Of a stretch of 64,000 nt of DNA, positions 55,614 through 56,116 are shown one piece after another; within the stretch, counting starts at the first letter, position 1; each line of letters starts with the position of its first letter. A program made the translations under genes and the position numbers. The notes under the pieces were generated by a model, which was not told the origin of the DNA, did no database searches, and worked only from the letters and a program-made list of their open reading frames with translations. This DNA comes from Escherichia coli (GTDB taxonomy: Bacteria > Pseudomonadota > Gammaproteobacteria > Enterobacterales > Enterobacteriaceae). Location: the NCBI RefSeq assembly GCF_003019035.1, contig NZ_CP027447.1; one strand, given 5' to 3'.

Positions 55614-56116
55614 ATGGGAATGATTGGCTATTTTGCAGAAATTGACTCAGAAAAGATTAACCAACTTCTTGAGTCTACTCAAAAACCTTTGATGGATAAT
55701 ATACATGACACGCTTTCAGGATTACGCCGACTGGATATTGATAAACGCTGGGATTTTTTACACTTTGGCCTGACGGGTACATCTGCATTTGACCCCGCGA
55801 AGAATGACCCGCTAAGTCGCGCAGTGCTTGGTGAACACAGCCTAGAAGATGGCATAGATGGCTTCCTGGGATTGACCTGGAATCAGGAGTTAGCCGCGAC
55901 AATCGACCGACTGGAATCACTGGATCGAAGTGAACTGCGTAAACAGTTTTCCATTAAGCGACTCAATGAAATGGAGATTTATCCGGGGTGACCTTTTCAG
56001 AAGAGTTAGAGGGGCAACTCTTTGCCTCGATCATGCTTGATATGGAAAAGCTGATTAGCGCGTATCGACGTATGCTGCGGCAAGGGAATCATGCGCTGAC
56101 GGTTATTGTTGGGTGA
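55614..56116 (+). pseudogene. yfbM: yfbM (DUF1877) interrupted by a frameshift in a G run
   Basis: Frame 1 (MGMIGYFAEIDSEKINQLL...EMEIYPG) stops at 55989-55991, directly after GGGG at 55985-55988. The rest of the protein (VTFSEELEGQLFASIMLDMEKLISAYRRMLRQGNHALTVIVG) continues in the +1 frame to the stop at 56114-56116. 125 + 42 codons matches the 167-aa length I recall for intact YfbM. Confidence 0.6.

Follow-up and report, generated by a model that had tools for sequence, protein, structure and literature searches.

A recent single-base deletion has probably made yfbM (DUF1877) a pseudogene in an Escherichia coli lineage close to strain SCU-301

Introduction

In the stretch of Escherichia coli DNA analysed here (64,000 nucleotides, hereafter the window), the reading frame of yfbM stops directly behind four consecutive Gs, and the rest of the coding sequence follows in another frame. 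A break at such a site raises the question of whether the gene has really been lost, whether the break arose during sequencing or assembly, or whether some active YfbM is still made. A first, sequence-only reading of the window had offered two alternatives: a genuine inactivating mutation of the slippage type at the G run, or an assembly or homopolymer sequencing error. A search of the literature on yfbM in E. coli and on DUF1877 returned passing mentions only and no functional study.

Results

The yfbM reading frame in the window

The gene begins with an ATG at position 55614. A Shine-Dalgarno sequence (GGAGG, 55601-55605, plus strand) lies 8 nt upstream of this ATG, with a calculated anti-SD duplex of -9.5 kcal/mol. 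The list of open reading frames gives a 5' fragment at 55614-55991 (plus strand) with 125 codons and a premature TGA at 55989-55991. Direct reading agreed with the list: the frame ends with ATT TAT CCG GGG TGA, and the stop indeed follows immediately after the GGGG at 55985-55988 (plus strand), as the sequence-only reading had reported. The 3' remnant spans 55988-56116 (plus strand) and consists of a GTG, which is the original Val126 codon, 41 further codons, and a TGA at 56114-56116. The GTG overlaps the premature stop as GTGA, and the residues past this start codon are TFSEELEGQLFASIMLDMEKLISAYRRMLRQGNHALTVIVG. Some public annotations list the 42-aa remnant as a protein in its own right.

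The distance between the two start positions (55988 - 55614 = 374 = 3 x 124 + 2) places the downstream frame at +2, that is -1, relative to the upstream frame. The remainder of the protein had been assigned to the +1 frame; it does continue in a different frame through 56116, but the offset has to be corrected accordingly. The proposal that one extra G would restore a single frame of 167 codons held up, and the codon GGG formed in this way still encodes Gly. The frameshift is a single deterministic sequence state to which no chance expectation applies, and the relevant test is the comparison with relatives.

The 125-aa product matched the Pfam family DUF1877 (PF08974) with 101.4 bits (cut-off 22). 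The match covered profile positions 1-124 of 163, so that the product ends at position 124 and does not carry the whole domain of approximately 163 positions in one polypeptide. No Pfam match was obtained with the 42-aa remnant alone. When both open reading frames of the window were joined, 165 of 167 residues were identical to the crystal structure of K-12 YfbM (1RYL), and the remnant corresponds to 1RYL residues 126-167 except for the start residue. The near-invariant DUF1877 residues W46, H50, T54, G55, S68, G73, Y123, and P124 are all located in the 125-aa fragment. The profile match and the alignments of relatives described below bear out that the gene is yfbM, a member of DUF1877, with a 1-nt frameshift at this position.

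The gene order around the site is elaD-yfbL-yfbM-nuoN (52600-57700). Both direct neighbours are intact, namely yfbL (M28 peptidase, 54540-55511, plus strand) upstream and the convergent nuoN (56183-57640, minus strand) downstream. The genes yfbK and yfbN/yfbO/yfbP are absent in the window lineage, yet they flank yfbM elsewhere in E. coli (assemblies L008, L010, and L014). A hairpin (CCGCCGA-ACATG-TCGGCGG, 56140-56158) is situated between the convergent yfbM and nuoN, and folds on the minus strand with -18.6 kcal/mol and a z score of -3.7 (plus strand: z -0.9). On the plus strand, the hairpin is preceded by A8, 16 nt past the yfbM stop (56132-56158 including the stem), which corresponds to U8 behind the stem on the minus strand; the plus strand itself offers only a weak T tract. 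Because of the U8 on the 3' side of the stem on the minus strand, we assign the hairpin to the nuo operon as its intrinsic terminator. A scan for consensus promoters and terminators gave nothing informative near yfbM and missed the nuo terminator. Across the entire window, no Rfam family reached the gathering score.

State of the site in related genomes

A 611-base query detected yfbM in 5,375 of the 5,426 complete genomes of E. coli searched. Strain SCU-301 was the best match, with a single difference: SCU-301 is one base longer. This strain belongs to phylogroup F, ST967 (PMC11251922). It is the nearest complete genome, and it reads CCGGGAGTGACC at the deletion site, where the allele carried by the window reads CCGGGGTGACC. 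In the alignment, SCU-301, E7-1N7, and TCM3e1 all read CCG GGA GTG ACC, while the window reads CCG GGG TGA CC, with a 1-nt gap exactly there. What the window lacks is the third base of the Gly125 codon (GGA), an A flanked by Gs. Every intact relative examined carries GGGAG (CCG GGA GTG) at this position. Alignments, base-by-base differences, and 73-mer surveys place the deletion point between 55987 and 55988.

The site was then surveyed by counting perfect 72/73-mer matches in complete E. coli genomes. The in-frame 73-mer with GGGAG was present in 3,518 of 5,374 genomes. Neither the deleted 72-mer of the window nor a hypothetical 73-mer with GGGGG matched any of the 5,374 exactly. Since GGGAG is ancestral, the run of four Gs was made by the deletion and was not shortened from five Gs; five Gs as the normal state are ruled out, as the GGGGG 73-mer is found in no complete genome. 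Comparing the length of the G run with that in related genomes, a check proposed at the outset, therefore confirmed the loss of 1 nt at this site. The idea of slippage at a G4 homopolymer did not survive the comparison, because the lost base is an A. It had further been considered that the 125-aa form might be the functional one in related strains; the norm there is the full-length 167-aa form. Measured against intact orthologues, yfbM of the window thus carries an indel that is not a multiple of three, as is typical of a frameshift pseudogene.

The same data bear on phase variation. A G run at the frameshift, with the frame restored by one added G through a synonymous Gly codon, is what a contingency switch would look like at first glance. 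Known contingency tracts are far longer than four Gs, and their length would be expected to vary among relatives. The ancestral GGGAG contains no such run, and the five-G form is absent from the genomes surveyed, so that the site is almost certainly not a phase-variable switch.

Reproducibility of the deletion

In order to be genuine, the deletion should recur in independent data. A public protein collection contains the exact 125-aa product (P0001) from 104 contigs of up to 5.17 Mb; their independence is judged from accession numbers alone, so that they may come from a few related projects. In the position index, the product occurred in 107 sample blocks. In addition, stretches of 6,378, 4,803, and 4,515 bases across the site in the Logan assemblies of SRR22991071, SRR28455200, and SRR8928053, respectively, match the window with 100% identity. 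These three are separately accessioned runs from different accession series, and reproducibility was judged here from assemblies.

Over the 64 kb, two SNPs (14890 and 45020) and three single-base indels separate the window from SCU-301. One of the indels is the yfbM deletion. The other two result from bases deleted in elaD of SCU-301, a gene that is frameshifted in that strain according to RefSeq. As these two lie on the SCU-301 side, the window assembly is not indel-prone. That the yfbM deletion is one of only five differences across 64 kb also argues that it is recent.

These results decide between the two alternatives of the sequence-only reading: the genuine mutation stands, and the assembly or homopolymer error is largely refuted. 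The latter would mean that the true genome has an intact 167-codon yfbM. It draws on the fact that the site now resembles a short G homopolymer, a classic spot for platform indel errors, and on the evidently error-prone assembly L009, which has another 1-nt loss in the same GGG. The identical deleted allele on the 104 contigs and in the three run assemblies speaks against it, as do the nature of the absent base, an A rather than a G, and the lack of an indel excess in the window relative to its nearest relative. We regard an error of this kind as extremely improbable.

Several other features of the 64 kb were noted during the comparison with SCU-301. At both SNPs, the window has A and SCU-301 has G; according to the SCU-301 annotation they lie in nrdA and menE. 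The elaD gene (approximately 52936-54153, plus strand) is intact in the window; in Logan locus L004, which is identical, it is annotated with a product of 405 aa. The two single-base deletions of SCU-301 elaD correspond to window positions 53908 and 53949. With a lesion in yfbM in the one and in elaD in the other, each of the two near-identical strains has its own private pseudogene. For a GntR-family regulator (window approximately 7337-8079, plus strand), the SCU-301 annotation gives a frameshifted pseudogene, and no base differs between the window and SCU-301 in this region, where the longest open reading frame is 7381-8079 (232 aa). The regulator gene is probably an older pseudogene common to the window strain and SCU-301. 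The gyrA gene (1544-4171, minus strand) encodes the wild-type Ser83 and Asp87 and is free of the common quinolone-resistance substitutions.

Other lesions in yfbM

By looking up the annotated 42-aa remnant (P0016), seven further assemblies with a disrupted yfbM were identified. In L008 and L010 an A is deleted at nt 320 of the gene, and in L011 a T at nt 308. L012 and L013, which adjoin IS1, carry an additional T at nt 51 and a deletion of CA at nt 351-352. In L014, a GGA to TGA nonsense mutation affects the same codon 125. The remaining assembly, L009, has two indels in yfbM. Some of the lesions in these seven assemblies may stem from sequencing errors in older draft assemblies.

None of the seven assemblies carries the deletion of the window, and hence there is no sign of a mutational hotspot at the site. 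Independent lesions in E. coli and Shigella-like assemblies fit a dispensable yfbM, and the pattern suggests that several lineages of E. coli and Shigella can do without the gene. Many E. coli-like YfbM products with out-of-frame tails, more than 90% identical, were also among the matches of a search of representative proteins.

Predicted consequence for the protein

To judge what is lost with the last 42 residues, we searched 1.84 billion representative proteins exhaustively and found 291 relatives. The alignment was built from the reconstructed full-length query and 77 matches picked for full length (160-179 aa); these homologues are 22-50% identical to the query, with one at 95%. Outside this set there are a few shorter, distant matches of 126-130 aa. 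All 77 of the homologues selected for full length have 37-45 residues past the position of the break. Conserved positions on the 3' side in this alignment are 126, 128, 147, 150, 151, and 165, and the near-invariant Tyr123-Pro124 directly precedes the break.

An AlphaFold model calculated with the 78-sequence alignment reached a pLDDT of 94.3 and superimposed on 1RYL with a TM score of 0.97 and an rmsd of 1.0 A. It superseded a model from the single sequence, which was all-helix with a pLDDT of 46 and unusable. The first half of the model comprises strand 4-10, helices 12-20 and 26-34, strand 39-43, and helices 46-54 and 66-72. The second half comprises strands 75-80 and 83-88, helices 90-101, 105-111, and 114-119, the loop 120-129, helix 130-156, and strand 160-166. 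The break falls in the surface loop 120-129. YfbM is a single-domain protein, and the truncation takes away its longest helix (130-156, 27 residues) together with one strand of the sheet (160-166), which runs from the edge to the core. Because this helix and strand are kept in all 77 selected homologues, the 125-aa product is most likely unfolded or inactive, judging from the model and from conservation. A Foldseek search of the PDB gave 1RYL itself as the sole solved match, and the structure therefore yields no lead to the function.

Possible routes to residual activity

We also considered whether some YfbM activity might persist in the clone, be it from a protein in two pieces of 125 and 42 aa or from a little wild-type protein made through a -1 slip of the ribosome. 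Overall, we consider this unlikely. If it were true, the locus would be a natural and very young instance of gene fission or of leaky recoding. Both routes involve an internal SD-like GGAG (55973-55976, plus strand), which lies 11 nt upstream of the GTG at 55988 and 8 nt upstream of the G run, and which bears on these two readings only. Its calculated anti-SD duplex of -6.4 kcal/mol ranks among approximately the best 5% of the positions sampled in the window.

In the first route, ribosomes would terminate at the TGA at 55989-55991 and reinitiate at the overlapping GTG at 55988, and the two peptides would reassemble. Together they hold every residue of YfbM, with Val126 as fMet, and the start would be the original Val126 codon with the GGAG in front of it, although the spacing exceeds the usual optimum. 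Split proteins tolerate cuts in loops between secondary-structure elements, and in the model the break is in such a loop. A helix and one strand would, however, have to dock non-covalently. The arrangement also came about by chance through a very recent mutation; it is not conserved and matches none of the complete genomes surveyed. A functional split gene is thus distinctly unlikely.

In the second route, with the TGA in the A site, the P-site tRNA-Gly would slip from GGG at 55986-55988 to GGG at 55985-55987 and the ribosome would go on to read GTG. In E. coli, slippery runs beside stop codons cause shifts at the percent level, and -1 shifts can be promoted by an SD-like element upstream of the run, e.g., in dnaX. 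Here, the slippery sequence G_GGG at 55985-55988 is followed by a stop as the next 0-frame codon and allows perfect re-pairing, and a minor share of the protein made would be YfbM of exactly the wild-type sequence. The efficiency would probably be low. The downstream region (55992-56050) folds with -16.1 kcal/mol, which is not significant as a stimulatory structure (z -1.3; 19 of 200 shuffles were as good), and no other complete genome surveyed conserves the configuration. The absence of the configuration elsewhere and the lack of a significant downstream structure rule out a selected recoding signal, and we regard accidental leakiness that would supply YfbM as very improbable.

Discussion

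Taken together, the window very probably contains a recent, clonally inherited loss-of-function pseudogene of yfbM that arose through the loss of one A. The loss of function is what the structure and conservation of the missing part point to. We propose the following course of events. In a chromosome very close to that of SCU-301 (phylogroup F, ST967), the A of codon 125 was lost, which converted CCG GGA GTG into CCG GGG TGA. The Gs on either side of the lost A make a misalignment of primer and template the most likely origin: while the DNA was being replicated, the 3' G of the nascent strand would have re-paired with the template C just past the A. The deletion set a TGA in frame, so that translation stops past Gly125. 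Without the last 42 residues, which form helix 130-156 and the terminal strand 160-166, the product is most likely unfolded or inactive, and the allele would have been passed on clonally as a young pseudogene.

The biological weight of a recent clonal pseudogene is small. The deleted allele is nevertheless useful as a clean marker of the sub-lineage that adjoins the ST967 strain SCU-301. It also calls for caution: behind a frameshift that coincides with a homopolymer there can be the true loss of a different base, by which the homopolymer was created, and such sites should not be corrected automatically as sequencing errors.

How does this locus relate to known systems? Compared with K-12 YfbM (PF08974), the joined reading frames give nearly the same sequence and, in the model, the same fold, and in both cases the gene is flanked by yfbL and the terminal part of the nuo operon. 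The differences are that the gene of the window is cut past codon 125 by the 1-nt deletion, and that its lineage has no yfbK 5' of yfbL and no yfbN/yfbO/yfbP between yfbM and nuoN. With programmed -1 sites such as dnaX, or a 'shifty stop', the window shares the G_GGG run, a stop in the A site, and the upstream SD-like element. Unlike these, the site is recent, is without a significant structure, and lacks the conservation by which such sites are defined. The locus resembles the ordinary, lineage-specific pseudogenes that occur in E. coli and Shigella, in which one inserted or deleted base shifts the frame of a conserved, non-essential gene; near-identical relatives have the gene intact, and the lesion is inherited clonally. 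Nothing essential separates the window from them, and the only oddity is the GTGA overlap of stop and start at the original Val126 codon. The yfbM case is best read as an ordinary recent pseudogene.
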